A DNA stretch of 63,357 bases, filler included, from Candidatus Zapsychrus exili (GTDB lineage: Bacteria; Omnitrophota; Gorgyraeia; Zapsychrales; Zapsychraceae), in NCBI GenBank assembly GCA_030765585.1. It is 5 parts of 5 records of this genome, joined end to end, with 100 filler letters (N's around TTAATTAATTAA, not from the genome) between each part and the next. Parts side by side here need not be neighbours in the genome. Positions count along the whole stretch, not along the records: positions 1 to 27,590 come from JAVCCJ010000027.1; 4 more parts are not named here. The stretch is one strand, 5' to 3'. Both the position numbers and the translations under genes were made by a program. Under the pieces are notes generated by a model. That model made no database searches and had not been told where the DNA came from. It saw nothing but the letters and a program-made list of their open reading frames with translations. Below, piece after piece: positions 1,250-57,537 of this stretch; the stretch's first letter is position 1, and the number at the start of each line of letters is the position of its first letter.

Positions 1250-4200
1250 TTAGTCTACCACTACCACTTCACCTTCTAATTGATCACGATATTTTTGCAG
1301 TTCCTCTTCATCGTACATAAGACCTTCTTTAAAATTACCGTAATTAAGCATTTTTATTTCATACTTAAGATCATCTATTTGCTTATCTTTTTCTGCAATT
1401 GTTTTCTTCATCTTACTTACATCTTGTTTTAACCCTTCTACTTCCAACTTAAACATATTTTCTTTTTCTTTAGAAGATGATATAAGAGCATCTTTTTTAT
1501 TAATTGCTCTTTTAAGCTTCTCTATTTCCGAATCTTTTGCGTTTAATTGTTTCTTTAAGAGAGCTAGCTCAGAATTTAATTTTCTTATAGTGCCTAAAGC
1601 CTCCACAAGTTGTTTTTCTAAAGAAGCTATTTTGTCGTTTAACTCTTTTATTCGAGTTTCATATTTAGCTTTACTATTGAGCATCTCTTGCTCTTTTGCA
1701 AAAACTTTATTTTCTAATTGCTTTATCTTGCTGTTTTTGCCTCTCACTTCAGCCTCAAGACTCAATACTTGTCTTCCTAAAGCATCCTTTTCTTCTTTGC
1801 AAACCCTATCTACATCAGATAATTGAGACTTCAAGTCAGCAACAGTTTTCTGGCTATTGGCCAGTTGATCCCTCAAAGAATCTATTTGACCATTTAAACC
1901 TTCAATTTGACCATTAAGAACACCTCTTACACTCTCAATTTCCCCTATCTTTGCAGCCAAGTCCTTCTTAAGACCACTTATCGCGTTGTCTTTATCTTGA
2001 ATCGTTTTCTCTAAATCAGCGATTCGTTCTTTGCAAACACCTTGCTCTTCTTTACAAGCCGTATTCGCATCTGACAATTTAGCCTTAAGGCCAGCAATAA
2101 TTTCTTGACTATCAGCTAATTGTTTTTTTAATGAGTCTATTTGATTATTAAACGCGCCGTTTGTACCGTCTAATTCTCTTACTTTTGCGACTATGTCTTT
2201 TTCAAGCCTATTTGCTTCGCTATTCTTTCCTGCAATAACTTTTTCTAGTTCAGAAATCTGCTTTCTTAGAGCATCTTTCTCATCGCTATATGCCTTACTT
2301 TTATTCGATAAATCATCCTTAAGGCCAGCAATAATTTCTTGACTATCGGCTAATTGTTTTTTTAATGAGTCTATTTGATCATTAAACGAGCCCTTTGCGC
2401 CGTCTAATTCTCTTGTTTTTACGATTATATCTTTTTCAAGTTTATTTGCTTCGCTATTCTTTCCTGCAATAACTTTTTCTAGTTCAGAAATCTGCTTTCT
2501 TAGAGCATCTTTCTCATCGCTATATGCCTTACTTTTATTCGATAAATCATCCTTAAGGCCATCTATTCTATTGTTTAGACTGTTTTCTTTTCTTTGGAAA
2601 CTTTCTTTTAAATCAGCTAATTTACGCTCCAAACTTTCAACTAAAGCTGTTGCAGAAGAAGCATTGTTCTTTTCTTTATTAAGTTCCGCTGTTAAACCTT
2701 TTGTTTTTTCCTTACATTCTCTTTTAGCTCTTGCTAGCTCAGCTTCAAGCTCTTTTATCCTTTTAGAACTCGGAACTTGTTTGCTTTTCTCTTTTGCTAA
2801 TTGAGTCTTTAAGTCTTCTATTTCGCTTTTTAAACTAGCGATAGCATTATCTTTTGATACTAAACTTGAACTAAGATCGTTTATCTTAACATTAAGAGAG
2901 TAAACATCGCTCTTAAGAGAAGCTATCACTCCATCTGCATCTTCACGCATTTTGGTTTTTTCTTCAAGTAACAATTTAAGAGAAGTTATCTCAACGCTTA
3001 GCTTATCTTTTTCTTCTTTTAATTCTTGATTTTCATTTGCTAATGTTTGACTCTTTAATAAAAGATCTTGCTCTTTTTTTGCAAAATCTAAAGAAGCCTC
3101 ATCTATTTCCTTATTCTTCTCTTTTAACTGTTTTGCAAGGTCATCTATTTTCATCTCTAAGGTCTTAACAACGTCCTCATCGCCAAGTATTTCTTGATTC
3201 TTTTGAGCTATCTGCCCTTCCAGCCCTAATATATTATCTGAATATGCTGCAAGCTCATTTTCTAATACACTTATCTTAATCTCATAATCTATTTTTTGTT
3301 TTTCTAAAGAAGCGATAGCGTCTTTCATTTGATCGTTCAGCAACGCTATATCATTTTCTGAATCTTTTAAAGCAACATCTTTTTCATCAAGGCTTTGTTT
3401 TAAATCAACTATTTGCGCATCAAGTATAGCTGCTTTATCTTTAAAAACCTTTAATTGCGCATCACTGCTTATATTTTGTTTTTCTAGAAAAGCTATTTTT
3501 TCTTTAAGCAGCTTAAGTTCTTGTTCAAACTTCTGTTTTGCAATAGCAAATCTTTTGCCAAATATATCTTCAGCGCTAACACTTGTATCATCTAATTGCT
3601 TTTCAAGCAAAGATACATTACTTAAAGCACTTTTAAGACTTGTCTGGCTTATAGCGTATTCCTGTTTTAAATTAAAATACTCACTTTGACTTTTTAATGC
3701 GCCTTCTGTTAAACTCACTATTTGCGTATCTTTTTGCTTATTTTGTCCTTCAAGCAAAGCTACCTTTTGATTTAGCCAATCAATTTCGCCTTGTATTTTT
3801 ATTGCTTTTAAAGTATATTCTTTGTCCAAATGCATTAATTCTGCCGAAAGAAGCGCATTTTCTTTTTCTTTCGCATCTATTTTTCCTTCCAACAAAGCAA
3901 CCATATCTCTATACTTATCTAAATCGTCATTTAAAACTAATGAGCTTTCATCATATTTACTAAGCGATATATTAGCTCCTTTAAGATCAAATTTAGCGTT
4001 AGATAACTTTTTTTCTAGTGCTGCTAAAATATCTTCATAACCTAATGCATCATCTTCATTGCTATCAAATTTGGCACGAAGTTTAGCTAATTCAGAGGAC
4101 AGGTTGTCATTTCTACTTTCTGCGGAATTTAAATCTTTTAATGCTTGTTCAAGCGCATCTTCCTTGATCTTTAAGTTAACCAAAGAATCTTTTAACTCTT

Positions 4201-5341
4201 TGCTTAGATCATTTAAGCCTTCTTCAGATGCTAAAATATCATTGTTCAGCTTTAATATTTCTTCATCTTTACCTGTAAGTTTACCCGCAAACATAGACGC
4301 CTTAGAAAGTTCTCCATCTTTTAAAAGAAGTGATTGTTCTTTTTCTGATAATTTTTGCCTTAAATCAGCCACCTTGTCTTCTGCTCTCGCAAGTCTTTTC
4401 TTTAAATCATCAATTTCATATATCCTATCTTTTGCATCAGCATTCGTATCTCTTAATTGCGATTTTATTTCCCTTAGAACGTTTTCCATTTCTTCTATAC
4501 GATTATTTGCATCTTCTAAATCTTTATTTTTTGACATCAAACTTGTTCTAGCGCCTATAAGGTCGCCTTTAAGGCCATCTATATCTTCTTGATTTGCTAA
4601 AAGCGCATCTTTTTCTTTTATTGCTTTATTTAAAGCGAGTAACTTTTCAACAAGAGAATCAACCTTGCCCTCTAGTCCATCTATACTATCTTGCTTAGTT
4701 TTATTACCTTCTTTTTCTTTTATCAGTAAATTCCTTAAATAACCTATCTCATCTGCCATTTTCTTCTTTAAAAGTCGTGCTGCATTATTGGACTCATCTT
4801 CCATTTTACGTATTATTTCATTCTTCTGCCTTAAAAGCTCTTCAAAGTGAAATTCTGAATTAGATGCTTTTTCATCAAGACTAGCTATTTTATTCTTATT
4901 TGACTTTAACTCTCTTGTTTTTTGTTCTAACTCTATTCTAAGACTTGTAAAATCTTCCTTCAGAATAAGTATCTTTTTGTCTCTATCAACAAGACTGGCT
5001 TCAATTCTTGCAAGTATTGACTTAAGCTCATTAAAGTTTACATTTGAACCCTTTTTAAGCAGTTCGCGTCCAAGTTCATCAATAAAATATTCCAATTGGC
5101 TAATGACCCTAAAAAGAGCTTTATTATGCCTTGTGAAATCTACCATTTTCTCTTGATAGTCTTCAATTTCAGATATTATTACAGCAGAACACGAGCTTGT
5201 TGTCTCTATGCTTCTAGTATTAGTGGTTAAAGCATGTGCGGGAATGCACAAAAATAAAAGTGCAAAAGAAGTTAAACAAAATATTAAACACAGTTTACTC
5301 AAGTTTTTCAAAGAAAGTTCTTTCATTGGTAGGTTCTCCAT
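1250..5341 (-). CDS. Large secreted/membrane-anchored coiled-coil protein (1363 aa)
   Basis: N-terminal hydrophobic signal ending AHA; continuous heptad-rich K/E/L sequence; no Walker motifs, so not SMC. Confidence 0.75.
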   Translation of the reverse strand: MENLPMKELSLKNLSKLCLIFCLTSFALLFLCIPAHALTTNTRSIETTSSCSAVIISEIEDYQEKMVDFTRHNKALFRVISQLEYFIDELGRELLKKGSNVNFNELKSILARIEASLVDRDKKILILKEDFTSLRIELEQKTRELKSNKNKIASLDEKASNSEFHFEELLRQKNEIIRKMEDESNNAARLLKKKMADEIGYLRNLLIKEKEGNKTKQDSIDGLEGKVDSLVEKLLALNKAIKEKDALLANQEDIDGLKGDLIGARTSLMSKNKDLEDANNRIEEMENVLREIKSQLRDTNADAKDRIYEIDDLKKRLARAEDKVADLRQKLSEKEQSLLLKDGELSKASMFAGKLTGKDEEILKLNNDILASEEGLNDLSKELKDSLVNLKIKEDALEQALKDLNSAESRNDNLSSELAKLRAKFDSNEDDALGYEDILAALEKKLSNAKFDLKGANISLSKYDESSLVLNDDLDKYRDMVALLEGKIDAKEKENALLSAELMHLDKEYTLKAIKIQGEIDWLNQKVALLEGQNKQKDTQIVSLTEGALKSQSEYFNLKQEYAISQTSLKSALSNVSLLEKQLDDTSVSAEDIFGKRFAIAKQKFEQELKLLKEKIAFLEKQNISSDAQLKVFKDKAAILDAQIVDLKQSLDEKDVALKDSENDIALLNDQMKDAIASLEKQKIDYEIKISVLENELAAYSDNILGLEGQIAQKNQEILGDEDVVKTLEMKIDDLAKQLKEKNKEIDEASLDFAKKEQDLLLKSQTLANENQELKEEKDKLSVEITSLKLLLEEKTKMREDADGVIASLKSDVYSLNVKINDLSSSLVSKDNAIASLKSEIEDLKTQLAKEKSKQVPSSKRIKELEAELARAKRECKEKTKGLTAELNKEKNNASSATALVESLERKLADLKESFQRKENSLNNRIDGLKDDLSNKSKAYSDEKDALRKQISELEKVIAGKNSEANKLEKDIIVKTRELDGAKGSFNDQIDSLKKQLADSQEIIAGLKDDLSNKSKAYSDEKDALRKQISELEKVIAGKNSEANRLEKDIVAKVRELDGTNGAFNNQIDSLKKQLADSQEIIAGLKAKLSDANTACKEEQGVCKERIADLEKTIQDKDNAISGLKKDLAAKIGEIESVRGVLNGQIEGLNGQIDSLRDQLANSQKTVADLKSQLSDVDRVCKEEKDALGRQVLSLEAEVRGKNSKIKQLENKVFAKEQEMLNSKAKYETRIKELNDKIASLEKQLVEALGTIRKLNSELALLKKQLNAKDSEIEKLKRAINKKDALISSSKEKENMFKLEVEGLKQDVSKMKKTIAEKDKQIDDLKYEIKMLNYGNFKEGLMYDEEELQKYRDQLEGEVVVVD
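2083..2560. repeat. Intragenic tandem duplication, 234-bp (78-aa) unit
   Basis: CCTTAAGGCC recurs at 2083, 2317 and 2551; two near-identical GLKDDLSNKSKAYSDEK...SQEIIA units. Confidence 0.9.
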
Positions 5342-6778: not shown

Positions 6779-8674
6779 TTACTTCTTTTGTGTAAACAAA
6801 GACACAATAACAATCGTTGCAAAACTTAATGGCATTGATATTATTCCTGGATTGCTAAAAGGTATTAATGCTGTCGCTGGATCAAGTCCGTAACGAACAT
6901 ACATACTTGGCGACATAAGAATTATTCCCAAAGCTGAAACAATACCTACAGCAATTGACCAAACAATACCCGCCGCTGTTGTCTTTTTCCAAAATAATAC
7001 CATCATAATAGCCGGCAAATTAGCAGATGCTGCAACAGCAAATGCCCAACCAACTAAAAATGATACATTCATGCCCTTAAAAAGTATGCCAAGCACAATT
7101 GCAATCATCCCTACAACAACTGCTGCAATCTTACCTGCGACAACCTTTTGTTTATCTGTTTTTATAATACCAGCAAAATGAGTTAAAAGGTCATGCGCTA
7201 CCGCACCTGATGCGGCAACAATAAGACCACTCACAGTCCCCAATACAGTCGCAAAAGCAATTGCTGATATCATAGAGAACAAAAATACTCCAAATGATTT
7301 CGCAAGCAATGGCGCTGACATATTACTTGTTGTTACATTTAAAACTCCATTTGCCATTGCACCTAACCCCATAAAAAGGGTGAGTATATAAAAGAATCCT
7401 ATTGCTGCAATTGCAACAATGGTAGACTTTCTAGCATCAGCAGGAGTTTTAACTGTGTAATAACGAATAAGAATATGCGGTAAAGCCGCGGTACCAAAGA
7501 ACAATGCGAGCATTAGAGAAACAAAATCAAGCTTCTCTAAAGGCGTGCCCTCAACTTTAAACTTCAAGCCTGGACGCATTATCTTATTTCCTGGCGTTTC
7601 AACAGAATAATAGACATTAACCTTATCTTCGCCATCGGCGAATGTTGCTTTTTTCCATCTTTTAACTACCGTATCTTTATCAGCAAAGTTAGACAAAAAC
7701 GCAAATGGACTTAACTTGCCTGTTTTAGCTTCCTCACCTGTCTTGCCTTTTATCTTTGTAAGATTTCCAACCTGACGAAGCTGATTATCTTTTGATGCAA
7801 GCTTACCATTGATAATAAGCGTTTCATCTACGGATAAAACCTCCGACTGAGTTTCTTCTAAAGTAATACTGCCATCTTCTTCTGTTGCTTCAAGCCACCA
7901 AGTTTCAATACCATCTTTTGAAAGCTCTACAAATGTCTTACCCTTAAGTTCCGCCTGACCAACATTTTCATAAGATGAATCCTGAGGAACAATTGTGTCA
8001 TTCTTTAATGTAGACTCAAGGCTTACATATTTATAAAACGGAACTCTCCCCCCCTGATCAGGCTCAGTATTTAAACCTCGCATAAAAAGAGAGATACAAA
8101 GAATGGTTGAAAAAACTATTAAAAGTGATCCTTTTAAAAACTGAACATAAGTAGTAGATGCCATGCCAGCTGTTGCAACAATAGTAATAACTATTGCACC
8201 TACCATAATAACTCCTACAAAATGAGGAAGCCCTAAGAGAGGCGTAACTAAAACACCTGCGCCTACCATTTGAGGTATAAGATAAAAAATAGATACAACA
8301 AGCGTACTTATTGCTGCAGCCAACCTTACACCTTTTGAATTAAATTTTGAGTCAAGTGCGTCGGCAAAAGTATACTTTCCCATACGCTTTAATGGCTCTG
8401 CTACAACAAAAAGAGCAACTATCCAACCTGCCAAATATCCTATTGAATAAAGAAAGCCATCATAACCAACAACTGCTATCATTCCGCAGATACCTAAAAA
8501 AGACGCGGCTGACAAATAGTCACCGGCAAATGCAATGCCATTTACCGCCCAATGTATCTTTCCGCCTGCAGCAAAGTATCCCTTCGAGCCTGTTGTCTGT
8601 TTAGAAAAATAAAATGAAAAAAAAAGAACAACACCTACAAAAAATATGAATAGAAGAATAGGCAATATAGACAC
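6779..8674 (-). CDS. actP: Cation/acetate symporter (SSS family, ActP-like) with large extracytoplasmic insertion
   Basis: GDYLSAASFLG, GTAALPHILIRYYTV motifs; adjacent DUF485 gene. Confidence 0.85.
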   Translation of the reverse strand: MSILPILLFIFFVGVVLFFSFYFSKQTTGSKGYFAAGGKIHWAVNGIAFAGDYLSAASFLGICGMIAVVGYDGFLYSIGYLAGWIVALFVVAEPLKRMGKYTFADALDSKFNSKGVRLAAAISTLVVSIFYLIPQMVGAGVLVTPLLGLPHFVGVIMVGAIVITIVATAGMASTTYVQFLKGSLLIVFSTILCISLFMRGLNTEPDQGGRVPFYKYVSLESTLKNDTIVPQDSSYENVGQAELKGKTFVELSKDGIETWWLEATEEDGSITLEETQSEVLSVDETLIINGKLASKDNQLRQVGNLTKIKGKTGEEAKTGKLSPFAFLSNFADKDTVVKRWKKATFADGEDKVNVYYSVETPGNKIMRPGLKFKVEGTPLEKLDFVSLMLALFFGTAALPHILIRYYTVKTPADARKSTIVAIAAIGFFYILTLFMGLGAMANGVLNVTTSNMSAPLLAKSFGVFLFSMISAIAFATVLGTVSGLIVAASGAVAHDLLTHFAGIIKTDKQKVVAGKIAAVVVGMIAIVLGILFKGMNVSFLVGWAFAVAASANLPAIMMVLFWKKTTAAGIVWSIAVGIVSALGIILMSPSMYVRYGLDPATALIPFSNPGIISMPLSFATIVIVSLFTQKK

Positions 8675-8685
8675 TATTCGCCTCC

Positions 8686-8973
8686 TTATTCTTTAGGATT
8701 TAATTCATCCTCTTTCTTTGAACACATAGTTGTATAAATTAAAGCAAGGACAAGGGCAAATATGATCAGTCCAAATCCATAAACAACCGCTAAATTAAGT
8801 CCTAAAAAAATTGTTTTTTCCATTAAAATAGGATTGGTAAGGTTAATAACAACAAATCCGGCATAAATAAGAGCATACAAAATAAACATAAATACTCCCA
8901 AACGCATTTTGTAGTCTTCTGCATTATCCGGACCTGAAACTTCTGCAGGTTCATGTAACATTTTGTTCTCCAA
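8686..8973 (-). CDS. DUF485 small membrane partner of ActP
   Basis: Two TM helices, directly upstream of actP. Confidence 0.8.
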   Translation of the reverse strand: MENKMLHEPAEVSGPDNAEDYKMRLGVFMFILYALIYAGFVVINLTNPILMEKTIFLGLNLAVVYGFGLIIFALVLALIYTTMCSKKEDELNPKE

Positions 8974-9074
8974 TGTTATGATTAATAATATTTTACTTAG
9001 TTATTATTATATAACACTTCTAAGAATAAGAAATTAGATAATGAATTATATTGGTTGAAATTTTAGGAAGAAAA

Positions 9075-12000
9075 TTAATCTTTTTTTATCGCTAGTGACA
9101 ACTGCAAATTATCATCACTATTGTCGCTATTATTATCATCGCTTTGGTCTACAAGCCCTAATAATGGCAAGACGCTATCAATTGGGGTTATATTAATAAT
9201 TACTGGAACAAATCCTTTAATATCCATATCAAGCAGAGGTTCAAAAGCCTTTGAGTCAAAGATAATATCATCGCCACTTCCTTGAACGTCGAACTCGATG
9301 CTATTTAAGTCGATACCGCCAATATCAGAAACCATTGCTTTGTCCGTAAACTCAAAACCATGTTCTTTTGTTAATTTTTGTAGCGGAACAAGAAAAAATT
9401 TATAACAATCATGTAAAATAGAATGTCCTGTTTTCTTGAAAGAAATTTCCATAATACTGTCGTTTGATAAATCAATTATATCATCTATTAACTGATTATA
9501 TCTCTCAGAGAATTCTATGATATCAAGAATTCTTTCCTCAGTTCGCACACTAATCTCTTTTATTGCTCCTTCATAATTCCCGTTTATAGACTCCTGTAAA
9601 TTATCTTTCATATTTATAAAAGTAGGAAATGCCAACCCGGGTCCCTCCATAAAAGAATAATAAAAATCGCTCACACCATGAGCATTTATTGCTTTTTTCA
9701 AATCACCATTTAAGTCAAAGACAACAAGTCTCTGTTGGTCATAATTATTCTTATTATCAACCTTAATTATTTCCATTTTTCTATATATTAAATCAAACTT
9801 TTCCTCTATATTGTTACAAATAACAAAAAACTCCTTCAACATTTCTTCACGTCCTTCATATGTCCCTTCTTCTGAAAAATTCTTTATTGCATCTTTATTG
9901 CTTAAATACCATTCTTTTAAAGCCTCAACATCATCACTAAGACTTTTATTGTTAATTTTTTCGTTATTTATTTCACGCATTCGTTCAGCAGCAACTTGAT
10001 AAAACTTTAAAGTGTATACAATATCCCCCTGTCTTTTTTTAACATTAATAAGCTGCTTATCGCTAAAATTCGGCATATTAAGCGTATTGTCCCCTGCTAG
10101 CATGGCATTATCTTTGCCCATGCTACCAAACAAGTCATCAGCTATAAAATTTTGTTCTCCTGAAACCTGAAACCTTGAACCTGACACCTGTTTTTCAGCC
10201 ACCATCGCTTTATCAATACTTTCTCCATCTAAAATAGGAGCGTCCACATCCGTCTTCTTCGAATCTTCAATAACTTTTTTTGTTAATTGTAAATATTTAT
10301 TATTACCAGACTCAACAAAAACCAATTTAATAATATCAGAATCTTTCATATCTTCTTTAATCTCAGAAATAAGCCAAAGTGTCCTTCCTTTTAATATCTT
10401 TATAGCTACCTTAAAAGAACCTTTTCTTTTTAACATTATCTTATGCAATCCATCAGTATCGTAAATCGTACGTTCCCCTAAAATATGACTAAAAGCTTGC
10501 TCTACTAAAATAACATTATCACTTGAATCCTCCAAAACCCTAAGAACGCCAAATTGCTCACTATAAGCAAATTGACCTTTTTTAAGAGACGTAAATGCAC
10601 CATCAAGATAATATTTTCCTGGTTCCATAGAAGTGGTCATCATGGAGTTATCTTCACCCGTACTACTAAACAAGTCGTCAACTATAAGCTTTTGTTCTCT
10701 TGAAACCTGAAACCTTGAACCTAACACCTGTTTTTCTGTCACCATCGCTTTATCAGAAGATGCATATTCCAAAGTCATTTCTTCCAGAGGAACAATAATT
10801 GCATCTAACGCGTCATGGTCTACTATCGCGGCTGCCAATGTTTCTCCACCATTATCTGAATCCTTATATAAAGGTGAAGATAGAGATATAGGCTTAAATA
10901 TAACCCCGAAAGACTCTCTTCTTTTTTTCTTTAAAACATCAGGTAACTTTGATTTTAAGAATGTTTCAAGGCCAATTCCCTTGGCTGCATGCCCATTAGA
11001 TGAATATAATTTTATAAGATCATACAATTCCAAAAATCCATCATGAACCAGCTCATCAAAATCGTTAGTATCTATATCTGCAAAAGCTGTTTTAAAATTT
11101 CTCTTATACATTATCAACGATACTTCTTCTTTGACTAACCATATATATTGCTCAACTAAGACGGCCAGCTTATTATCATCTCCGCCTCTAACAGCATCTA
11201 TTACATCTTTTTCTTCACCTTTAGACAAGACCTCTTGATCGTTATAATAATCTCTTATTGCCAAATGATTACGTCTATATGCTTTAGATATCCCCTCTAG
11301 ACTTCCAATCCTTTCAAGCGCTTTATATGCAGTTAAAATACTAACCCCAAAATATTTTGCTATTCTATGTAAATCAGCCTTAGGATGTTGTTTTCTGTAT
11401 AATTTTAAACTAACTGAATCGATCTTATAATTGCGTCCCCCACCCTTTCTTGTGTAAGCAACATTATGATATTTAATAGCGTCTATTATTGTCTCTACGC
11501 AAGTCTCAAAATGATCTGCTATTTGCTGCTGTATATCTTTAGGATTTGCATCTATATATTCTTGTAACTCTTTCTTTCCTATAATACGCTCACCCTCACG
11601 AGTTTTAAGAATATAGGGAATATTATGCTTCCTTATTGATTTTGAAATAGCTGAATCTACCACCCCAAAATGCTGCGCTATTTTATTTAAATTTGCCTCA
11701 GGATATCTTTTTATATAATTGCTAAGCTTTTTTAAATCTACTTTATATTGACCATGCACCTTCGGTGTATAATCAACTCCATAAAAACTAATAGCATCTC
11801 TTATTGTTTCTTTATGAACTCCGAAACTATCCGCTATTTGCTGTTGAGTAAAATCAGGATGTTTAAGAATAAAACCTTTTAACTTACCTTGATTTACAAT
11901 CCTTTCTCCATCGTAACTTTTAATTGTGTAAGAAATGCTATGTTTTTTTATCCTACGCGATATTGTGGCTCTACTAACTCCAAAATAAAAAGCTATCTCA

Positions 12001-14627
12001 TCTATGTTCTTTTTTGGATTTCTTTTTATATATCTAATTAACTTGTCTATATCTAATATGTCCGAGGCTACACCTTTATAATCAATTCCACTTCTTTCAA
12101 TAGCTCGCTTTATGGTTTCTCTTCCAACTTTAAATTGTTTAGCAAGCTTCGTTAGAGATATCTTTGGGTTAACTAAAATGACAACTCTTAATTTATCAAT
12201 ATCAATATCAGCAACTGTTCTATCTTTAAAGTCAATATCATAAACAACTACTGACTTCCCAACCGCTTCAATCGTATATCCAAAATAATTTCCTATTGTT
12301 CTTAACAAAGCATCCTCGTGCGTTTCTATATATTCTCTTAAAAGCTCTTCTGACACTAAAGTCTCAAGGCGATGTTTGGGCGCATACTCTATTCCGTAAA
12401 GCTTAAAGGCTCGTCTTAAAGTATCCCTACTAACACCAAAATGATCATCTATGTTTTGCTTACTTATATAAGGATTCGCTTTTATATAACTTTTAAGTTC
12501 TATCTCATCGACAATTGATAAAAGAGCATTATTGTTAGTGGCTCCTTTAGATGTTGCCACCATTGCATGATCACCTTTAATATTTTTCAAATGACGTTTC
12601 TTAGTAGTAAGCACCATACGCTTTGAAGCGCTACGCCTCTCATTAGAAATCTTTTCTATGTCATAACGTATATAAGCCCCATATTCATCCGCCTCTGCAC
12701 TAAGATCAATTGATCTAACGTCATAGTTGTCATAAGTTAAGAAAAACTTCCCATCTTCTTTCATGAGAGGATGAATAATATAAAACAAATAACCAAATAA
12801 ATTTTGTGCAGGGGTGATGTAGTCCATTCCATTTGTACTAATTAAGAAATCAATAGAATTCTTTTCAAAAAATTCTCCAAAATCAAAGGCTTCTGCAAAA
12901 ATCAGGCGATCAATAGTGGTACCATTATTTATCCAACCTTGAAAAATAATATCACCAAATCCATGGTATTTAACATTTTTAATATCTGGATAATATTTCT
13001 TCATTGTATCCTTAAAATCTTGAAGCATATTAAGCTCTTCTTCTAATTCTCCAATTCCCCAATCAACAACATTAATAATCTGATCTGGATTTTTCATTGC
13101 CTTAGCAGCTATTTTGTGTACAAAGACTGGCGCACCGCCCCTCTTTTCCTTAGGGAAAAAGATAAGATCAGCATAAGGCGCATTTATTCCTAAGGATGAA
13201 TATCCTTGCGGGACAGCATTTCGAAGAAACTTTATCTTATTTTTTTCATCTTTTGTAATCGTGTATGCATTACTCTTGCTCTCTGAAAGAGCAGTTACAA
13301 TTTCTTCTAACTTATCTTGAGACGCAACAGACTCGATAATAGTGCCAGTTGAAACTTGAACTCTTGAAAGAACAATATCTGAGGCTCTTGTCACCATCGC
13401 CTTGTCGTTATCCGAAAACTCTAACCTAACCTCCATTGTAGATTCGGCCCCAACTTCTGAATTCTTTACCGTCATTGCATTATCAGTTCTTTTGACAGTC
13501 AGCGCCTGATCTTTAAAACCACCTGAGAAATATTTCTTAGGAATTATTTGCTTTGCGACAGGGTCGTATTCTTGCTTGATGTAATTGTAGACACCTTTTT
13601 TGTAAGCATCCATGTATTGATTGTAGATATCTTCTGGTTTCGTCATTGCGAGCGCATTTTGCGAAGCAATCTCATAATGAGAGATTGCCACGTCGGCTTG
13701 ATTTTCTGACTGCCTCCTCGCAATGACATCAGAAGATTTGATGCCTTCTACTTTATTTTTATCAATATAAATTTGCGACAAGATACTATTCTTAACCTTT
13801 TGCTTATACCATTTAGCAAGAATAAGTGAATGATATATCTGGCGAAGCGATGCAAAATGTTCACCTTCATTTACTTCGCGCTCTATAGCAGGGATTATTA
13901 TTTCTTTAATAATGGAAGATGAATTGTTTTGTTTTTTTCTATCTTCTATCTTCAACCCTCTATCCTCTTGCAAATAATCTTGTTCCAGCATTACTTTCAT
14001 CTTTGACTCAACTACATAAACCGTTGCGCCATTTTCATAAATTGTCGCACTCTCTGGAAGTATCCATACTTTATTAAACGTATCAGTAGGAATACTCGAA
14101 ACTCCATACTTATCTTTGGCTTGCTTATATATTTTTTCCCAAAATTTCTTACCCAGCTCTCCTTCTGGATGCATCAAAGATGCTGTTAATTGTTTTAGAA
14201 TATAATCTTGAGCTAAAAGATCCATTCCAAGCTCTGTCTTGCCTAAAGCATCTGGAACGATTCGGTCGCGTTCTGTTGGGGATAAATTAACCCACAAATC
14301 TCCTTTAGGCACTGTCATTGAAGCTAGAAAGTAGTTTACTAGTCTTTTAGATTCTTTTTTAAGATCTTCTCCTTTTAGGCTAGAATGACCATTATCAATA
14401 ATAAAATCAAACTTAAACGGGTCTTCTGGATGGACTGTCATACCTCTTAGCAAGGTTGGGACATGTGCAGAGCTTTGGGTAAGCATCGCGCCTGACACAG
14501 GCATATTTACCACATTCTGGGCAAAAGACAGCGAAGGCGCAATTGAGCTAAAGATTAGCAAGAAAACAAGTAAAAAACAAATAGCAGAATGTACAGGTTT
14601 TTGCTTGTTTTTGTTAAATAAGGTCAT
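9075..14627 (-). CDS. Giant modular secreted protein (1850 aa): conserved N-domain, DxAM-separated cargo modules (MTase-like, 8xHTH, sigma70-like, two unknown), GGIDLN C-domain
   Basis: Signal peptide (..SLSFAQ); N-domain aligns with 54304-57537; 8 DxAM/DNSM motifs; recognizable cargo motifs. Confidence 0.8.
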   Translation of the reverse strand: MTLFNKNKQKPVHSAICFLLVFLLIFSSIAPSLSFAQNVVNMPVSGAMLTQSSAHVPTLLRGMTVHPEDPFKFDFIIDNGHSSLKGEDLKKESKRLVNYFLASMTVPKGDLWVNLSPTERDRIVPDALGKTELGMDLLAQDYILKQLTASLMHPEGELGKKFWEKIYKQAKDKYGVSSIPTDTFNKVWILPESATIYENGATVYVVESKMKVMLEQDYLQEDRGLKIEDRKKQNNSSSIIKEIIIPAIEREVNEGEHFASLRQIYHSLILAKWYKQKVKNSILSQIYIDKNKVEGIKSSDVIARRQSENQADVAISHYEIASQNALAMTKPEDIYNQYMDAYKKGVYNYIKQEYDPVAKQIIPKKYFSGGFKDQALTVKRTDNAMTVKNSEVGAESTMEVRLEFSDNDKAMVTRASDIVLSRVQVSTGTIIESVASQDKLEEIVTALSESKSNAYTITKDEKNKIKFLRNAVPQGYSSLGINAPYADLIFFPKEKRGGAPVFVHKIAAKAMKNPDQIINVVDWGIGELEEELNMLQDFKDTMKKYYPDIKNVKYHGFGDIIFQGWINNGTTIDRLIFAEAFDFGEFFEKNSIDFLISTNGMDYITPAQNLFGYLFYIIHPLMKEDGKFFLTYDNYDVRSIDLSAEADEYGAYIRYDIEKISNERRSASKRMVLTTKKRHLKNIKGDHAMVATSKGATNNNALLSIVDEIELKSYIKANPYISKQNIDDHFGVSRDTLRRAFKLYGIEYAPKHRLETLVSEELLREYIETHEDALLRTIGNYFGYTIEAVGKSVVVYDIDFKDRTVADIDIDKLRVVILVNPKISLTKLAKQFKVGRETIKRAIERSGIDYKGVASDILDIDKLIRYIKRNPKKNIDEIAFYFGVSRATISRRIKKHSISYTIKSYDGERIVNQGKLKGFILKHPDFTQQQIADSFGVHKETIRDAISFYGVDYTPKVHGQYKVDLKKLSNYIKRYPEANLNKIAQHFGVVDSAISKSIRKHNIPYILKTREGERIIGKKELQEYIDANPKDIQQQIADHFETCVETIIDAIKYHNVAYTRKGGGRNYKIDSVSLKLYRKQHPKADLHRIAKYFGVSILTAYKALERIGSLEGISKAYRRNHLAIRDYYNDQEVLSKGEEKDVIDAVRGGDDNKLAVLVEQYIWLVKEEVSLIMYKRNFKTAFADIDTNDFDELVHDGFLELYDLIKLYSSNGHAAKGIGLETFLKSKLPDVLKKKRRESFGVIFKPISLSSPLYKDSDNGGETLAAAIVDHDALDAIIVPLEEMTLEYASSDKAMVTEKQVLGSRFQVSREQKLIVDDLFSSTGEDNSMMTTSMEPGKYYLDGAFTSLKKGQFAYSEQFGVLRVLEDSSDNVILVEQAFSHILGERTIYDTDGLHKIMLKRKGSFKVAIKILKGRTLWLISEIKEDMKDSDIIKLVFVESGNNKYLQLTKKVIEDSKKTDVDAPILDGESIDKAMVAEKQVSGSRFQVSGEQNFIADDLFGSMGKDNAMLAGDNTLNMPNFSDKQLINVKKRQGDIVYTLKFYQVAAERMREINNEKINNKSLSDDVEALKEWYLSNKDAIKNFSEEGTYEGREEMLKEFFVICNNIEEKFDLIYRKMEIIKVDNKNNYDQQRLVVFDLNGDLKKAINAHGVSDFYYSFMEGPGLAFPTFINMKDNLQESINGNYEGAIKEISVRTEERILDIIEFSERYNQLIDDIIDLSNDSIMEISFKKTGHSILHDCYKFFLVPLQKLTKEHGFEFTDKAMVSDIGGIDLNSIEFDVQGSGDDIIFDSKAFEPLLDMDIKGFVPVIINITPIDSVLPLLGLVDQSDDNNSDNSDDNLQLSLAIKKD
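10108..10754. repeat. Duplicated ~107-bp inter-module linker (10108-10214 and 10648-10754)
   Basis: Offset 540 bp; both encode DKAMVxEKQVxGSRFQVSxEQxxIxDDLFxSxGxDNxM; contain TGAAACC-type heptamers. Confidence 0.9.
13642..13727. repeat. In-frame palindromic element (RPE/REP-like) copy A
   Basis: GTCATTGCGAG...GAAGCAATCTC...GAGATTGCCAC...CTCGCAATGAC; encodes VIARRQSENQADVAISHYEIASQNALAMT. Confidence 0.85.
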
Positions 14628-15514: not shown

Positions 15515-15793
15515 CTAATTGTTTTTCAGAAATCGCTTAATATCGTCATGATTTCCGGCAAGTACAAATTCCACTAGATCGCCTTGCCATCTGAACAAAA
15601 TTCTAGCCTTAATACCCTAGCGCGCCTCCCAAAAATCTTTTCTTAATCGTTTTAAACCAACACCCTTATGAATATCTCTATCCTGAGATAGCATATCTAT
15701 TAATTGCATGGACGCTTCTTTTATTTCTTCCTTTTCTTTTGCAGAAAAAGAATTTATAGATTTATTAAATGAAGGTTTAAATTCAATTCTCAT
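15515..15793 (-). pseudogene. RelE/ParE-like toxin interrupted by in-frame TAG at 15617-15619
   Basis: Manual translation MRIEFKPSFNKS...GLKRLRKDFWEAR*GIKARILFRW...LAGNHDDIKRFLKNN; start overlaps the antitoxin stop (ATGA). Confidence 0.75.
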
Positions 15794-16053
15794 AAATTCT
15801 TAAGATACTTCTTAGCAGCAACAACATCTGTAAAACTTTTACCTTTTTCAGTAGCTAGTTTTTCTATTTTGGTCCACTCTTTTTCTGTATATGGAGATTT
15901 AGCTATAACCTCACAAGGAACCAGAACTACTCCATCTTTTGTTATTCCAAATCCAACTGACGAACCTTCTTTTAGATGCAAAAGCTTTCTAATACGATTA
16001 GGTATTGTAATCTGTCCCTTTGTAGTTATTTTTGCTATTTCTGTTATTGTCAT
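15790..16053 (-). CDS. AbrB/MazE-family antitoxin
   Basis: AKITTKGQITIPNRIRKLL swapped-hairpin motif; TTGACA-N17-TATCCT promoter upstream (16125-16130). Confidence 0.85.
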   Translation of the reverse strand: MTITEIAKITTKGQITIPNRIRKLLHLKEGSSVGFGITKDGVVLVPCEVIAKSPYTEKEWTKIEKLATEKGKSFTDVVAAKKYLKNL

Positions 16054-17309: not shown

Positions 17310-18170
17310 CTAATCTCTATTACGACCTCTCTGGCCACCACGGCTATCTTCTTTACTCTTGCCACCTCTTCTTTCTTGGCCACGGTCTCCTTTTTTTCCT
17401 TTTTTGCCTCCTCGATTATCATGATGCTGACCTTTTTCTCCTTTGCCTCTTCTATCACCTCTGTCATCTTTTCTATCACGATAATTTTCTTTTCGATCAC
17501 GCCTGTCATCGCGTCTATCATAGCGATCTTCTCTATTACCTCTATCGCCTCTATGATCACGATAATTTTCTTTTCGATCACGTCTATCATCACGTCTATC
17601 ATAACGATCTTCTTTTCTGTCGCGTTTACCTTCTTTTCTGTCTCTTACATCTTCACGCCTGTCCTGCCTGTCTTCTTTTCTGTCTCTATATTTCTTACGT
17701 TCACCTCTGTCAACTTCTCCGTCATTGTTTCTATCTTTTTTACCTCTATTAAACTTTTGCCTTTCATCCTTTGACACTGACCCATCACCATCTTTATCCA
17801 TTTCTTTAATACGTGAAGCCTTGCGTTCTTCTCTTTTAGCTTCCCTATTCTCACTACGTTCTTCTCTTTTAGTTTTCTTAAACTCACTACGTTCTGCTTT
17901 CTCACCTTGTCTATACTCTTTTCTTTGAACATCAAACTCCTTCATTTTTTCTTGTATCTCTTTGTGAGATAAACCGTCTTGCCTATACTGCTCAATAGCC
18001 GCCTTGCGACTTGCATGATATTCTTCTTTCCATGCTTGATGTTCTGCTTTTTGCTCTTGATTAAACTCTTGGGCTTGTTCTTTTAAACTTGTTCCTTCTT
18101 CTTGCGCTTGCGCCATTGAACCGACACAAAACATTCCAACAAGAATTAGTAGTAGGGCTTTTACTCTCAT
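17310..18170 (-). CDS. Secreted low-complexity D/R/E/K-rich protein with two EF-hand-like loops
   Basis: Signal peptide ..AQA; DKDGDGSVSKDE and DRNNDGEVDRGE; 81-bp internal repeat; AGGAGG RBS. Confidence 0.8.
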   Translation of the reverse strand: MRVKALLLILVGMFCVGSMAQAQEEGTSLKEQAQEFNQEQKAEHQAWKEEYHASRKAAIEQYRQDGLSHKEIQEKMKEFDVQRKEYRQGEKAERSEFKKTKREERSENREAKREERKASRIKEMDKDGDGSVSKDERQKFNRGKKDRNNDGEVDRGERKKYRDRKEDRQDRREDVRDRKEGKRDRKEDRYDRRDDRRDRKENYRDHRGDRGNREDRYDRRDDRRDRKENYRDRKDDRGDRRGKGEKGQHHDNRGGKKGKKGDRGQERRGGKSKEDSRGGQRGRNRD

Positions 18171-18300
18171 TTTGATTCCTCCTTAACAAAAAAAATATAT
18201 TTTATTAAATTTAGTCCGTTTTTGCTCAAAAACACCTGATTGTTTCTCCTTTCTCCAAAAAAATACCTTATTTCGCTAGGAATAAAGTCTTTCTTTAGTT

Positions 18301-18425
18301 GGCAGCTGGCTATCCTTAAAATTTAAGGACCCTGCCCCGACCTTCAATCGGGGTCCCGATTTCCTTCTAATGTTTTTAGAAAACATCGGGATAGCTTTGT
18401 GTCCCATCCTTGCAAATGGTTTACC
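18301..18425 (-). ncRNA. c-di-GMP-I (GEMM) riboswitch with a ~57-nt insertion
   Basis: Minus strand GGTAAACCATTTGCAAGGATGGGACACAAAGCTAT...AGGGTCCTTAAATTTTAAGGATAGCCAGCTGCC matches the GEMM-I pattern (GYAAACC, GNRA loop, GGGACRCAAAGC, AGC..RYYRCC); located in the leader of 17310-18170. Confidence 0.8.
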
Positions 18426-18466
18426 TTTTTAAAAGTTATTCACATGTCAATGAACCGTTTTTCTCC

Positions 18467-18505
18467 CCTACTAGTTTAAACCCCGTTAATTTAGAAAAGT
18501 TTCGC
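18467..18505 (-). promoter_or_regulatory. Putative ECF sigma promoter upstream of the riboswitch
   Basis: GCGAAACTTTTCTAAATTAACGGGGTTTAAACTAGTAGG; aligns without gaps to 19921-19959. Confidence 0.6.
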
Positions 18506-18518
18506 TAAAATTTAAAAT

Positions 18519-19199
18519 TTATTTTCTCACGCCTTTTTTCTTATGACCACCGCGACTGCGACCACTGCGACTATCACGTTTTGTGCCGCGAGAATCTTTC
18601 TTTTTTCGAATATTATTAGCAGCACTAGGACCTCTTTCAGAACCACGCCTACCCTTTATATCGCTAGCATGCTTACGCTCATTCTTCTTTCGAATATCTT
18701 TTTTTGTCTCATCAAGGCGCCTTTGTCTTTCTACATCGCCGCCTCCTCTTTCTTTACCCTCGCCTCGTTTGCCTTTATCTTTTTCTCTAAACTTACGACG
18801 AAACTCTCCTCTTCTTTCTTTAGGCAAATCATGAAAACGCCTTACCTTATTACGTAAGTCTTTTCTATGACCTTCAGGTAAATCACGAAATCTTTTATAA
18901 TTATTACGCATTCTACCTTTATCTTCGATAGAGCGTGTTCTAAACTCTTTAGCATTCCTACGTATAGCTTTTCTTTCATCAGTATTTAAACCACGCACCT
19001 TTTGACGAATTGCCTGACGCTCTTCTTCTGATAAGCTCTTCCATCGCTTTAAATTTTCTTCATACGAAGACTCATCAGCCGCAGCCACGCCAACGTTTTC
19101 ATCGTTCGCAAATACTTTTGGCACAACGCACAATTGAAACAAAATAAATAAACCAATAATATATCGTATTTTATTTTTCATATTATAATATTTCCTCAT
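18519..19199 (-). CDS. Secreted DUF3106-like protein of the ECF locus
   Basis: Signal peptide; repeated W/F-xxLxxE-R helical units; basic low-complexity tail; start may be 19181. Confidence 0.65.
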   Translation of the reverse strand: MRKYYNMKNKIRYIIGLFILFQLCVVPKVFANDENVGVAAADESSYEENLKRWKSLSEEERQAIRQKVRGLNTDERKAIRRNAKEFRTRSIEDKGRMRNNYKRFRDLPEGHRKDLRNKVRRFHDLPKERRGEFRRKFREKDKGKRGEGKERGGGDVERQRRLDETKKDIRKKNERKHASDIKGRRGSERGPSAANNIRKKKDSRGTKRDSRSGRSRGGHKKKGVRK

Positions 19200-19908
19200 C
19201 TATGTCTTCGACAACATCTAAGTCTTCTAATAAAGCATAATTTTGATAAAATTCCATATTCTCATAAACATCTAAATAGGCTACAATCTCCTCATCAATC
19301 TCTTCATCAATAAGCTCAACCTCTTGAGGCGCTACCTTAGCAATGCTTGTTACCTCTGCTTGTTCAACTACCTGTTCAACTACCTCTGCTATCTCTTCTT
19401 CCTGAGGCACGCTTGCTACTTCTACGACACCCACTATCTCTTTTTCCTCAATAACACTCGCAACACTTTCAACTACATCTTCTTTAACTAGTTCAGCCTT
19501 TGCTATCATTTGTATATCTGGTTTTATTTGAATTTTCTTTGCAAGTTGTGCGGTATCATTTTTAAGATTACTACTAACGAGCGCGTAAACCACAATAAAT
19601 ACTGATATTGTCGCCATTGCAGGAACAAACTGAGGAAATTCAAAATTGATGCTTGGTAAGGTAAAATCAAACTTAAATTTCTTCTCTTTTTGCTGATCAA
19701 TTCGATCCATAACTCTAGCTGTAAAATTACTGCTGACTTTTGGTGCCTCATACTCATCAAGCATAAGCCAGGTTTCTTTAAGGACCTCTTTCTCTTTTTG
19801 ACACTCTTGACACGTATCTAAATGAGCCGAAACAAGAACATTATCTTTATCAGACAAATCTGACTCTAAAAAAGAAACAAGTAAGTTTTTAACATCTTTA
19901 CATTTCAC
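19183..19908 (-). CDS. Zinc-finger (ZAS/zf-HC2) transmembrane anti-sigma factor
   Basis: C...HLDTCQEC motif, one TM helix, downstream of ECF sigma. Confidence 0.88.
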   Translation of the reverse strand: MKCKDVKNLLVSFLESDLSDKDNVLVSAHLDTCQECQKEKEVLKETWLMLDEYEAPKVSSNFTARVMDRIDQQKEKKFKFDFTLPSINFEFPQFVPAMATISVFIVVYALVSSNLKNDTAQLAKKIQIKPDIQMIAKAELVKEDVVESVASVIEEKEIVGVVEVASVPQEEEIAEVVEQVVEQAEVTSIAKVAPQEVELIDEEIDEEIVAYLDVYENMEFYQNYALLEDLDVVEDIDEEIL

Positions 19909-19920
19909 TTTGGTATTCCT

Positions 19921-19959
19921 CCTACTTTATTAAATCCATATATACTAAAAAAGTTTCGC
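19921..19959 (-). promoter_or_regulatory. Putative ECF sigma promoter upstream of the anti-sigma gene
   Basis: GCGAAACTTTTTTAGTATATATGGATTTAATAAAGTAGG; GAAAC -35 element. Confidence 0.55.
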
Positions 19960-20544
19960 CTATTTATTAAAATAGTCCGCCAATTTTTCCTTTAAAGTTA
20001 CACGCGCCCTATGAAGCAGCGATTTGACCGCCTTTGTTGAGACTCCCATAACTTTTGCAATGTCCTCATACGAAAGCTGATCGTATTTATATAATATTAA
20101 AACCATCTTCTGATTTTCGACAAGTGCATCAATAGCCTCTTTAACCAGCTTGTCTGTTTCATTAGATATGGCATCATCTACGGGTGTTGACTCTTTATCA
20201 TCAGCAACCTGCAACGGAACAGAGCCTTCAGACAATTCTTTTGACTGATTTAGTGATATTGTTTTAAGTTTTTCACGACGGAATGTTTTTAGACAAGTAT
20301 TTTTGCAAACTGTATACAGCCATGTAGTAAATTGAGCATCAGAAGGCTTGTAAGACTTTTTTAAATTATAGATATTAATAAAAACCTGCTGTGCCGCATC
20401 TTCGGCATCATGAACATTGCCTAAATATCTAAAGGCAATATTAAAAACACGCTGTTTGTGACGCTCAACAAGCTGCTCAAAACAGCGATCATCGCCATCT
20501 TGAAATTGAACCATCAAATCAATATCTGTAAAATCATTTTCCAT
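19960..20544 (-). CDS. ECF RNA polymerase sigma factor
   Basis: DAEDAAQQVF, FTTWLY, SYEDIAKVMG...VKSLLHRAR; likely start MENDF at 20544 (possibly leaderless). Confidence 0.92.
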   Translation of the reverse strand: MENDFTDIDLMVQFQDGDDRCFEQLVERHKQRVFNIAFRYLGNVHDAEDAAQQVFINIYNLKKSYKPSDAQFTTWLYTVCKNTCLKTFRREKLKTISLNQSKELSEGSVPLQVADDKESTPVDDAISNETDKLVKEAIDALVENQKMVLILYKYDQLSYEDIAKVMGVSTKAVKSLLHRARVTLKEKLADYFNK

Positions 20545-20585
20545 TGGGAATATATTAGCAGAGAATTCTGCTACAAGGCAAGGCA
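20535..20585. repeat. 51-bp direct repeat copy 1 (promoter and start of the ECF gene)
   Basis: Matches 24655-24705 at 50/51 positions; contains TAGCAGA-GAAT-TCTGCTA inverted repeat. Confidence 0.9.
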
Positions 20586-20738
20586 TTTCCCCTTAAAGAG
20601 AGGACACCTCTATAACTTAATTCTTCACTGACCACTGATCTGTCCCTTTCTAAATTTTGCCATATTAAAACCACTAGCCTTCCTTTATTTTACTTTTTTA
20701 TTTACTTTCAATACTATTAACCTTACTATTAATAGTAT

Positions 20739-57300: not shown

Positions 57301-57537
57301 TAAAAAATCAAATTCAAAAGGCTTTTGAGGATTAACAATAATTCCTTTTAACATAGCTGGTTGTATAAGCATTTCGCTAGGCTGCGCTAAACTAGTGGCT
57401 GTTAAAGAAAGGCTAATATTTTGAGCATAAGAATTACTAGGAAAGACAAACTGGGACGAGGCAAAAGCTATTATTAATATAGATACAATAGCTTTATAAA
57501 ATAACTTAACTTTTTTATTTTTAATATATAACAACAT
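54304..57537 (-). CDS. Giant modular secreted protein, paralog of 9075-14627, 3'-truncated
   Basis: Signal ..SYAQ; shared N-domain (PFEFDFLLD, DLWVNL, QDYILKQ, VWIVPE, EVNEG.HFA.LRQIY, KYFSGG); DYAM and DNAM; MTase module VLFVGVGFG. Confidence 0.85.
56516..56589. repeat. In-frame palindromic element copy B
   Basis: ATCATTGCGAG...GAAGCAATCTC...GAGATTGCCAC...CTCGCAATGAC; encodes VIARSASDVAISSDEIASQNTLAMM. Confidence 0.85.
56782..56865. repeat. In-frame palindromic element copy C
   Basis: GTCATTGCGAG...GAAGCAATCTC...GAGATTGCCGC...CTCGCAATGAC; encodes VIASSAKQSAAISEEDEIASSSSTPRND. Confidence 0.85.

Follow-up and report, generated by a model that had tools for sequence, protein, structure and literature searches.

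Sigma-70 factors that lack the sigma-3 helix-turn-helix (HTH) domain, such as SigH, SigE and SigK of B. subtilis and factors of the extracytoplasmic function (ECF) type, are built on region 1.2 and the domain-2 fold. A still smaller factor is gp55 of phage T4 which, according to the accessible text of PMC7892883, is a sigma consisting of domain 2 only, places three acidic residues of a clamp-binding helix on the clamp helices of RNA polymerase and, working with gp33 and gp45, needs a DNA tether from outside. In the dCas12f-sigma-E system, as far as the available part of the report describes it (10.1101/2025.06.10.658880), recognition of the -35 region has been handed over to a separate DNA-binding device. 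Here we describe a related arrangement on a stretch of 63,357 nucleotides (nt; filler included; hereafter the window) from Candidatus Zapsychrus exili (Omnitrophota; GCA_030765585.1). One module of a carrier protein of 1850 amino acids (aa) contains a divergent sigma-70 core preceded by eight HTH repeats. The module has the same region 1.2 and domain-2 fold as the SigH, SigE, SigK and ECF types but, unlike them, is devoid of region 4, possesses the N-terminal HTH repeats and resides in a carrier with a predicted signal peptide.

In its presumed mode of action the module comes closest to these last two systems. T4 gp55 (structural match 7d7d_F, Z 8.6) is made by a parasite and uses the host polymerase, though its synthesis takes place within the host, from phage DNA, and the tethers are proteins in their own right, while the module carries an export signal and its presumed tether is fused to it. 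Only the domain-2 fold is shared, since the sigma part matched no PHROG family at E<=0.01 and is by sequence no member of the gp55 family. The dCas12f-sigma-E system (structural match 9n9q_C, Z 7.4) is RNA-guided, consists of two proteins, is cytoplasmic in its producer and has no HTH array, whereas in the module the tether would be part of the same chain. The repeats resemble tandem-HTH proteins of jumbo phages (AR9 gp027, PBS1 gp212 and two LPJP1 proteins; family phrog_14131), which share the ~52-aa unit but stand alone without a sigma part; their function is given by annotation alone, and we found no paper on their testing. The carrier recalls the giant multi-enzyme proteins of Omnitrophota, for which the accessible parts of West-Roberts 2023 and of Nielsen and Lui 2026 report unrelated cytoplasm-type activities in one chain, many signal peptides and a proposed cleavage. 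Unrelated activities in one chain are also ascribed to the polyvalent proteins of phages and plasmids in the portion of PMC5512222 at hand. With 1850 aa and no membrane helices the carrier lies under the size limits applied to the giants in the two Omnitrophota studies.

West-Roberts 2023, Nielsen and Lui 2026 and Iyer 2017 do not use the word 'sigma' in the main text as far as accessible (0 occurrences each), though the bioRxiv supplements might list sigma domains. A search of the open literature, by title and start of abstract among the papers listed and with most subscription papers outside its scope, disclosed no account of the DxAM carriers described below, no Omnitrophota polyprotein or sigma-factor cargo, no secreted sigma effector, no sigma-HTH-array fusion and no sigma factor exported between bacteria. 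Francisella MtvS1/2 has been proposed as a split sigma in the available part of PMC13627669. What appears to be new, judged from the sequences, is the fusion of a region-4-less core to a phage-type HTH array, a parallel in a second genome (G310), a carrier with a signal peptide as its sole hydrophobic element and stand-alone relatives with export-type starts. We tentatively read the module as an exported effector that may act as a minimal alternative sigma in the cytoplasm of another bacterium and redirect the host polymerase, a model to which we give clearly less than an even chance.

Identity and fold of the sigma part

The stretch noted in the first-pass annotation (10815-12520) corresponds to aa 703-1272 of the carrier, and the whole module comprises aa 690-1291. 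Its sigma part contains the following features:

10905-11270, minus strand: sigma-70 region 1.2 and domain 2 (aa 1120-1241), by profile, AlphaFold model and fold match
11022-11066, minus strand: helix of region 2.2 (aa 1188-1202), predicted to touch the beta-prime clamp helices, with acidic E1192 and D1196 and invariant G1197
10812-10892, minus strand: region 3.2 finger-like acidic linker (aa 1246-1272; SLSSPL...ETLAAAIVD)

Single-sequence searches with the sigma part yielded neither a Pfam family at E<=1 nor a PDB sequence at E<=10. SigH was matched weakly (TIGR02859, E 0.0037, under every curated cut-off), but contiguously over profile positions 5-125 of 198. Three word-indexed searches of a set of 5.8 billion sequences returned the module protein itself only, a weak negative since some 7,500-8,000 candidates were scored in each. 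By an exhaustive phmmer search nine hits at E<=0.001 were obtained: the protein itself, six true relatives (26-31% identity) and two repeat-rich proteins (P0002 and P0008), which were dropped as chance hits on account of their short matches. A family profile of 12 rows had 108 matches in the PDB at E<=1, and the 60 among them that were listed were sigma-family chains throughout. For regions 1.2 to 2 alone, the profile matched a stretch of sigma-F (i-E 2e-5) and residues 349-431 of E. coli RpoD (E 5e-6). Pfam Sigma70_r2 matched five of the 12 family rows but not the module copy alone.

The AlphaFold model of the sigma part (predicted local distance difference test, pLDDT, 70.5) was closest to RpoH (8hkc_E, Z 12.2, root-mean-square deviation 2.9 A over 107 residues), followed by pro-sigma-K (8vjl_B, Z 12.0); values of Z under 13 can be due to chance for helical bundles, but here sequence and fold concur. 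Sigma factors or their complexes occupied 27 of the best 28 rows, and the first unrelated natural protein had a Z of 6.3. With Foldseek neither the sigma model nor the model of the whole module had a match at E<=0.001; the top rows of the former were sigma factors, and the latter was uninformative at a predicted template modelling score (pTM) of 0.32. The helices of region 1.2 are present ahead of domain 2, as the structural alignment begins at residue 5 of the model, opposite residue 14 of RpoH and 97 of RpoS. Region 1.2 is also supported by a profile alignment to the group-2 sigma of the genome, which encodes three ordinary sigma factors.

The first-pass annotation had described a segment similar to sigma-70 regions 1.2, 2 and 3 without region 4. 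Region 1.2, domain 2 and the 3.2 finger were recovered, while the globular sigma-3 HTH domain was absent: the distance from the 2.4 helix to SLSSPL is about 10-15 residues, and region 2.4 leads straight into the 3.2 finger. Full sigma factors align to the family profile only as two separate stretches. The lack of region 4 held up, as the DxAM junction that ends the module follows about 20 residues past the finger and the region-4 profile of the family gave no match within it. Structural matches to sigma domain 2 (Z 12.2 to RpoH) and to HTH units (by Pfam and AlphaFold), a check that had been fixed beforehand, were both found. It is confirmed that the module holds a divergent sigma-70 core of region 1.2, domain 2 and the 3.2 finger, without the sigma-3 domain or region 4. 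Lacking domain 4, it counts as a homologue of sigma-70 without being a full member of the family.

The HTH repeat array

Between the N-terminal border of the module and the sigma part lies the array:

11283-12515, minus strand: eight ~52-aa three-helix HTH repeats (aa 705-1115), by repeat comparison and AlphaFold
12363-12515, minus strand: repeat 1
12207-12359, minus strand: repeat 2 (degenerate)
12057-12209, minus strand: repeat 3
11907-12059, minus strand: repeat 4
11748-11900, minus strand: repeat 5
11592-11744, minus strand: repeat 6
11433-11585, minus strand: repeat 7
11283-11426, minus strand: repeat 8

The repeats recur with a period of 50-53 aa, and their mean pairwise identity of 31% compares with 7.0 +/- 0.7% in 2000 shuffles (maximum 9.4%). 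In the AlphaFold model of the whole module seven of the eight were three-helix HTH beads without a fixed arrangement (mean pLDDT 65, pTM 0.32). The eight HTH repeats of ~50 aa that had been annotated are thereby substantiated. Their duplication must be old, since nucleotide identity among them is only 39-61%. The array is net basic (75 K+R against 53 D+E), and its eight repeats carry eight different recognition helices.

The label of IS630 type fared less well. Several Pfam HTH families match the array, among them PF01710 of IS630 (E 5e-16; 59.3 bits against a cut-off of 21.3), but phrog_14131, a phage tandem-HTH family, is by far the better match (E 3.9e-63). Using tblastn, the repeats matched 9 of 50,697 phage records, all of them Bacillus or Listeria jumbo phages, at 23-29% identity. 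Full-length matches to the repeat unit numbered five in AR9 gp027 (best 2e-14), four in PBS1 gp212 and three and two in the LPJP1 proteins; reversed-sequence controls produced one weak hit. By sequence the repeats are thus closest to DNA-binding proteins of the AR9/PBS1 jumbo phages, not to IS630. An origin as an IS630 transposon remnant was rejected given this better match and the lack of a DDE family in the open reading frame (ORF) and its neighbours. Weak Sigma70_r4 matches occurred within the N-terminal repeats, among many generic HTH families. We also rejected the idea that the last repeat is a permuted sigma-4, because the region-4 profile of the family does not match the repeats.

Relatives of the sigma part

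Among 401 genomes of the phylum, eight matched the sigma part, in each case within open frames of 1,851-57,099 aa. The 12-row profile recovered these eight and added G310 (E 5e-23) and G037 (E 1.5e-12), followed by other sigma factors, mostly ordinary short genes. The family was met solely in long or signal-peptide proteins of Omnitrophota. A genome scan with one relative gave two loci, and a metagenome scan gave 5 of 132 candidates, including an ordinary FliA-like sigma (L044). Two sigma-2 hits in long ORFs among 15 genomes of the same family turned out to be other sigma types in other carriers.

Region 4 is kept in 10 of 17 family rows according to a profile built from those rows, and independently in 6 of 12 according to Pfam. 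Two relatives exceed the cut-off of the sigma70-ECF superfamily, and relatives match the SigK/SigE models end to end. The retention of region 4 and the two superfamily matches imply that the family derives from whole sigma factors. Four rows clearly lack region 4, i.e., the module protein, the near-copies L065 and L042, in which a junction comes after the finger, and L064. The state of P0005, which ends ten residues later, and of P0009 and L066, which continue as unassigned helices, is uncertain.

A beta-rich domain, usually with tetratricopeptide (TPR)-like helices before it, precedes the sigma part in 14 of the 16 other rows. An example is L040:4300-5400 (plus strand; ~360 aa with three L-x-x-D/R-G-x-L motifs). 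This domain, which has an AbrB/MraZ-like look, had no PDB, Pfam, PHROG or Atlas match. The module protein has neither element, their position being taken by the HTH array.

A second fusion was detected in G310 (contig C2, L017:1498-3261, plus strand; also L064). In a frame of 20,196 aa a region-4-less core precedes seven HTH repeats of Fis type and an SSS junction; the repeats match C-terminal HTH models of Fis and bacterial enhancer-binding proteins (best E 9e-25). The two arrays come from different HTH families, one N-terminal and the other C-terminal to the core, and so were recruited separately even if region 4 was lost once. The G310 protein would thus represent recruitment of another HTH family to the same core, which supports redirection of the polymerase as the function of the module. 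Stand-alone forms also exist. G037 encodes a beta-TPR-sigma protein of 1,195 aa with a signal-peptide-like start, situated in a run of four such paralogues (contig C17, L066:3828-7412, minus strand), and P0005 has a similar start. The stand-alone signal-peptide versions carry no junction motifs. In the other carriers the junction motifs differ from DxAM and are of the type A/S-S-S-S/P, which suggests that the sigma family moves between carrier types.

Further sigma factors were seen in long ORFs. L122 (G354, contig C145, minus strand; open frame of 3,290 aa) has a PATMP-bounded module of a region-4-like HTH, about eight basic repeats of ~75 aa and a full RpoD-like sigma. Additional complete sigma factors, ECF-like or RpoD/SigB-like, are present in L121 (G340, C95), L019 (G069, C3) and P0007 (aa ~3770-4020).

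The carrier protein and its predicted export

The genome (2.04 Mb, 96% complete) is represented in the window by five joined contigs, of which the one at bases 1-27590 (C34) holds the carrier. Its features are:

9075-14627, minus strand: carrier ORF, 1850 aa, with signal peptide, conserved head, four cargo modules parted by DxAM junctions and conserved GGID tail
14520-14627, minus strand: predicted Sec signal peptide (aa 1-36, cleavage A36/Q37), by hydropathy scans, pattern only
13398-14519, minus strand: conserved head domain (aa 37-410), common to 17 ORFs of the genome
12561-12572, minus strand: DHAM junction (aa 686-689), N-terminal border of the module
10743-10754, minus strand: DKAM junction (aa 1292-1295), C-terminal border of the module
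10663-10755 and 10123-10215, minus strand: 93-nt direct repeat, 90% identical, encoding a double DxAM-junction spacer and flanking the third (next) cargo module
9078-9344, minus strand: conserved GGID tail at the C-terminus (aa 1762-1850), with counterparts in 15 ORFs of the genome

The signal peptide shows a basic n-region, a hydrophobic stretch (aa 11-30) and an SFA-Q site, and is the sole strongly hydrophobic segment of the carrier (hydropathy cut-off 1.9), which has no membrane helix. In all 17 paralogous heads the N-terminal segment finishes in (A/G)Q. Hence the annotated placement of a DxAM-bounded module within a signal-peptide protein proved correct, with D686-H-A-M and D1292-K-A-M as borders and the signal peptide recognized by its conserved pattern (17/17 heads). 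The head had no Pfam match and hit only unnamed clusters of the ESM Atlas (scores <=0.86). DxAM motifs are 34-fold enriched in the carrier family, defined as the 24 ORFs of the genome with head or tail: 81 in 32,364 aa (2.5 per 1000 aa) compared with 57 in 783,671 aa elsewhere (0.07). The pair of 93-nt repeats suggests, on sequence grounds, that a cassette was inserted via recombination. A metagenome contig (L043) covering 8347-12226, i.e., repeats 3-8, the sigma part and the tail, was 99.97% identical, with one of 3,880 bases differing. An assembly chimera is therefore unlikely, although L043 may stem from the same population. Sequencing run X1, possibly the source sample, covered 30 of 30 bins in short contigs, none of which spanned the carrier gene.

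The carrier has the full family pattern of signal peptide, head, DxAM-bounded cargo, GGID tail and few cysteines. Cysteine makes up 0.14% of residues in the 24 family ORFs and 1.14% in 796 other ORFs; the mature carrier contains three instead of 20.7 expected. Pfam domains at E<=1e-4 were found in 12 ORFs out of the 23 scanned, which were 22 paralogues plus a neighbouring ORF that bears DxAM. Among these domains are GAPDH, PGK, enolase, PGI, PFK, UDP-glucose pyrophosphorylase, guanylate kinase, methyltransferases, GNATs, HATPase, NUDIX and an RNA polymerase alpha-CTD-like domain. Of seven cargo segments tested, six enzymes (PGK, enolase, GAPDH, PGI, PFK and guanylate kinase) had 0-1 cysteines and were 25-38% identical to separate housekeeping copies. 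The family therefore appears to place cytoplasm-type activities behind export signals. Secretin matches were obtained in seven ORFs of the genome. The lack of any other hydrophobic helix, the low cysteine content and the separation of the cargo enzymes from housekeeping copies favour action outside the producer's cytoplasm.

As a separate observation, two carriers of the genome (contigs C80 and C83; L058 and L059) jointly hold most of glycolysis as cysteine-poor extra copies (PGI, PFK, aldolase-like, two GAPDH, PGK and enolase). In the one on C83 (L059:3439-9519, minus strand) the alpha-CTD-like domain (PF03118, E 1.7e-5; aa 1309-1362) follows phosphofructokinase and represents a second transcription-related cargo.

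The module might also serve the producer itself, either cut free in its cytoplasm or with the N-terminal helix as a mere anchor, and act on the producer's own polymerase. Many sigma carriers of the wider family are giant membrane proteins, anchored enzymes facing the cytoplasm are a live hypothesis in the available text of Nielsen and Lui (10.64898/2026.06.07.730766), and the co-fold described below, predicted with the producer's RpoC, scored 0.84. Cysteine loss throughout the family and duplicate cargo enzymes are hard to explain for cytoplasmic cargo, and the cleavage-site pattern conserved in 17 of 17 heads, the stand-alone signal-peptide versions without junction motifs and the three ordinary sigma factors of the genome likewise speak against such a regulator, which we consider unlikely. 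Even less credit is due to a role in binding DNA outside the cytoplasm, for capture or as a pilot, with a sigma part that is vestigial or active only after co-transfer of DNA. The signal peptide and the basic repeats akin to phage DNA-binding proteins would suit it, and polyvalent proteins are, according to the accessible portion of PMC5512222, injected together with DNA. It leaves the conserved core-binding helix unexplained, and no transfer or mobile-element genes were found beside the ORF; we regard it as very improbable.

Predicted contact with RNA polymerase and proposed mode of action

The residues of the core-binding helix are well conserved, with an acidic residue at the position of E1192 in 11 and at that of D1196 in 10 of the 12 rows, and G1197 in all 12. 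The equivalent helix of gp55 shows this pattern where it meets the clamp helices (PMC7892883). The co-fold with the clamp helices that had been envisaged earlier was carried out with aa 1116-1281 and the N-terminal 335 residues of the genome's RpoC. It scored 0.84 (runs 0.84, 0.79 and 0.84) against 0.45 for the best control, but resembles already solved sigma-core complexes, so that the score shows likeness, not binding, and may reflect memory. Among solved pairs 116 of 157 attain the mark for such predictions, as against 2 of 215 among mismatched ones. The runs shared at least 61% of contacts, and the pLDDT of the partner was at least 68. The contacts of lowest error joined aa 1191-1202 to RpoC 269-293, i.e., region 2.2 to the clamp helices at the canonical interface. 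The core-binding face and the family-invariant residues are retained at an overall identity of 19-30%.

According to the effector model, the carrier would cross the inner membrane of the producer by means of the signal peptide, whose pattern is evident. A cut at or near the DxAM junctions might then release a unit of ~600 aa, which would enter the cytoplasm of the bacterial host of a presumed epibiont. The host would have to be a bacterium for a sigma-70 core to act. There, region 1.2 and domain 2, identified by homology and fold, are predicted to bind the beta-prime clamp helices. The eight HTH repeats would hold the holoenzyme on the DNA in place of region 4, while domain 2 and the 3.2 finger could open the -10 region, leading to starts at sites set by the array. 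In the accessible text of PMC10066038, V. archaeovorus, an observed epibiont of the phylum, is described as attaching to bacteria and archaea. Overall, the interpretation given in the first-pass annotation is partly supported; that the unit is cut at DxAM, enters another cell and there reprograms the polymerase and does not jam it is what we infer.

Several findings weigh against this effector model. The -10 melting surface, with positions assigned by E. coli numbering, is much changed: S1226/K1227 occupy the positions of the tryptophan pair and Y-I-W that of the N-L-R motif. The single base in which L043 differs results in F1223S, at the aromatic equivalent to Y430, and is an error or a real variant. 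Being joined to region 1.2 and not to the sigma-4 end, the array cannot simply occupy the sigma-4 seat. As the partner was the producer's own RpoC, the co-fold, apart from its likeness to solved complexes, cannot tell host from self. The module has one cysteine against 6.9 expected, weak evidence since related phage HTH proteins are also without cysteine. Repeat 2 lies in a stretch with pLDDT<50, is not confidently folded and is degenerate. The array was absent from 400 and 300 other genomes of the phylum and was found in this genome only (1/401 and 1/301). L065 and L042 lack region 4 without having any HTH array. In the tree, the four region-4-less rows need two changes, a single loss not being rejected (approximately unbiased test, p-AU 0.15), and the branch of the module protein is long.

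Some of these points would suit a delivered jammer or decoy, which would sit on the host clamp helices and keep off NusG and the host's sigma factors, with the polymerase pinned by the basic array and no productive initiation. The core-binding helix is conserved while melting residues drift, the array has a basic net charge and a different recognition helix in each of its eight repeats, and F1223S occurs in L043. Moreover, given the geometry of the holoenzyme, an array at the N-terminus should emerge from the polymerase on the side of region 1.1 and downstream DNA. Yet the finger and the Y430-equivalent aromatic (11 of 12 rows), dispensable for binding alone, are retained across the family, and most relatives kept region 4. 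No immunity or anti-sigma gene adjoins the ORF, though export alone could protect the producer. We judge jamming to be rather improbable.

The module could as well be a decaying passenger, in which shuffling of DxAM cassettes cost the sigma part its region 4 and left the remnant attached to an array of phage origin, the fusion having no selected function. Occurrence in one genome, a right border formed by one copy of the recent 93-nt repeat, the long branch, the degenerate repeat 2 and the F1223S variant are consistent with decay. Nevertheless, the frame is open across 1850 codons, invariant residues and the core-binding face are kept despite the low identity, the chain of L065/L042 stops near the same boundary of regions 3.2 and 4, and G310 has a second sigma-HTH-array fusion. 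The repeats are old, yet seven of eight still fold. We assign a low probability to decay.

Returning to the exported effector, a broader version would state that sigma factors serve Omnitrophota epibionts as effectors exported to bacterial hosts, and that they are given new targets when tandem HTH arrays (of phage type here, of Fis type in G310) replace region 4 and the N-terminal domains; as a general rule this is doubtful at present. Since a sigma factor has no periplasmic substrate and acts on bacterial core polymerase only, the cargo points to the bacterial cytoplasm as the site where the long Omnitrophota proteins work. If active, the one-chain combination of sigma-2 and HTH array would be a natural design for promoter-independent, retargetable initiation. 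If the effector model is true, a modular initiation factor delivered from bacterium to bacterium would rewire host expression beside delivered glycolytic and signalling enzymes. An inactive module would still record domain-level shuffling of a transcription factor inside carriers. Unlike the giant membrane proteins, the module is small and soluble enough for work in E. coli or in vitro.

Other features of the window

The other three cargo modules of the carrier (12561-13397, 10215-10637 and 9345-10097, minus strand) had no Pfam or PHROG match and no paralogue in the genome, although the first of them looks methyltransferase-like by eye (VVDWGIG). At 13638-13742 the head domain contains an in-frame hairpin DNA element (-36.7 kcal/mol as RNA), of which 10 further partial copies exist in the genome. 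Another DxAM-carrier paralogue, truncated by the contig end, is located at 54304-57555 (minus strand, contig C43).

At 15520-16053 (minus strand) a gene presumably encoding an AbrB-like antitoxin (87 aa) overlaps a gene that we take to be RelE-like and that is broken by an in-frame TAG. A run at 17310-20586 (minus strand) comprises an ECF sigma, a zf-HC2 anti-sigma, a DUF3106 protein and a highly charged repeat protein with a signal peptide; the sigma/anti-sigma pair (19183-20586) is canonical, and no link to the module was made. At 1250-5341 (minus strand) a coiled-coil protein of 1,363 aa with a signal-peptide-like start is encoded, whose gene has an internal 245-nt repeat at 95% identity.

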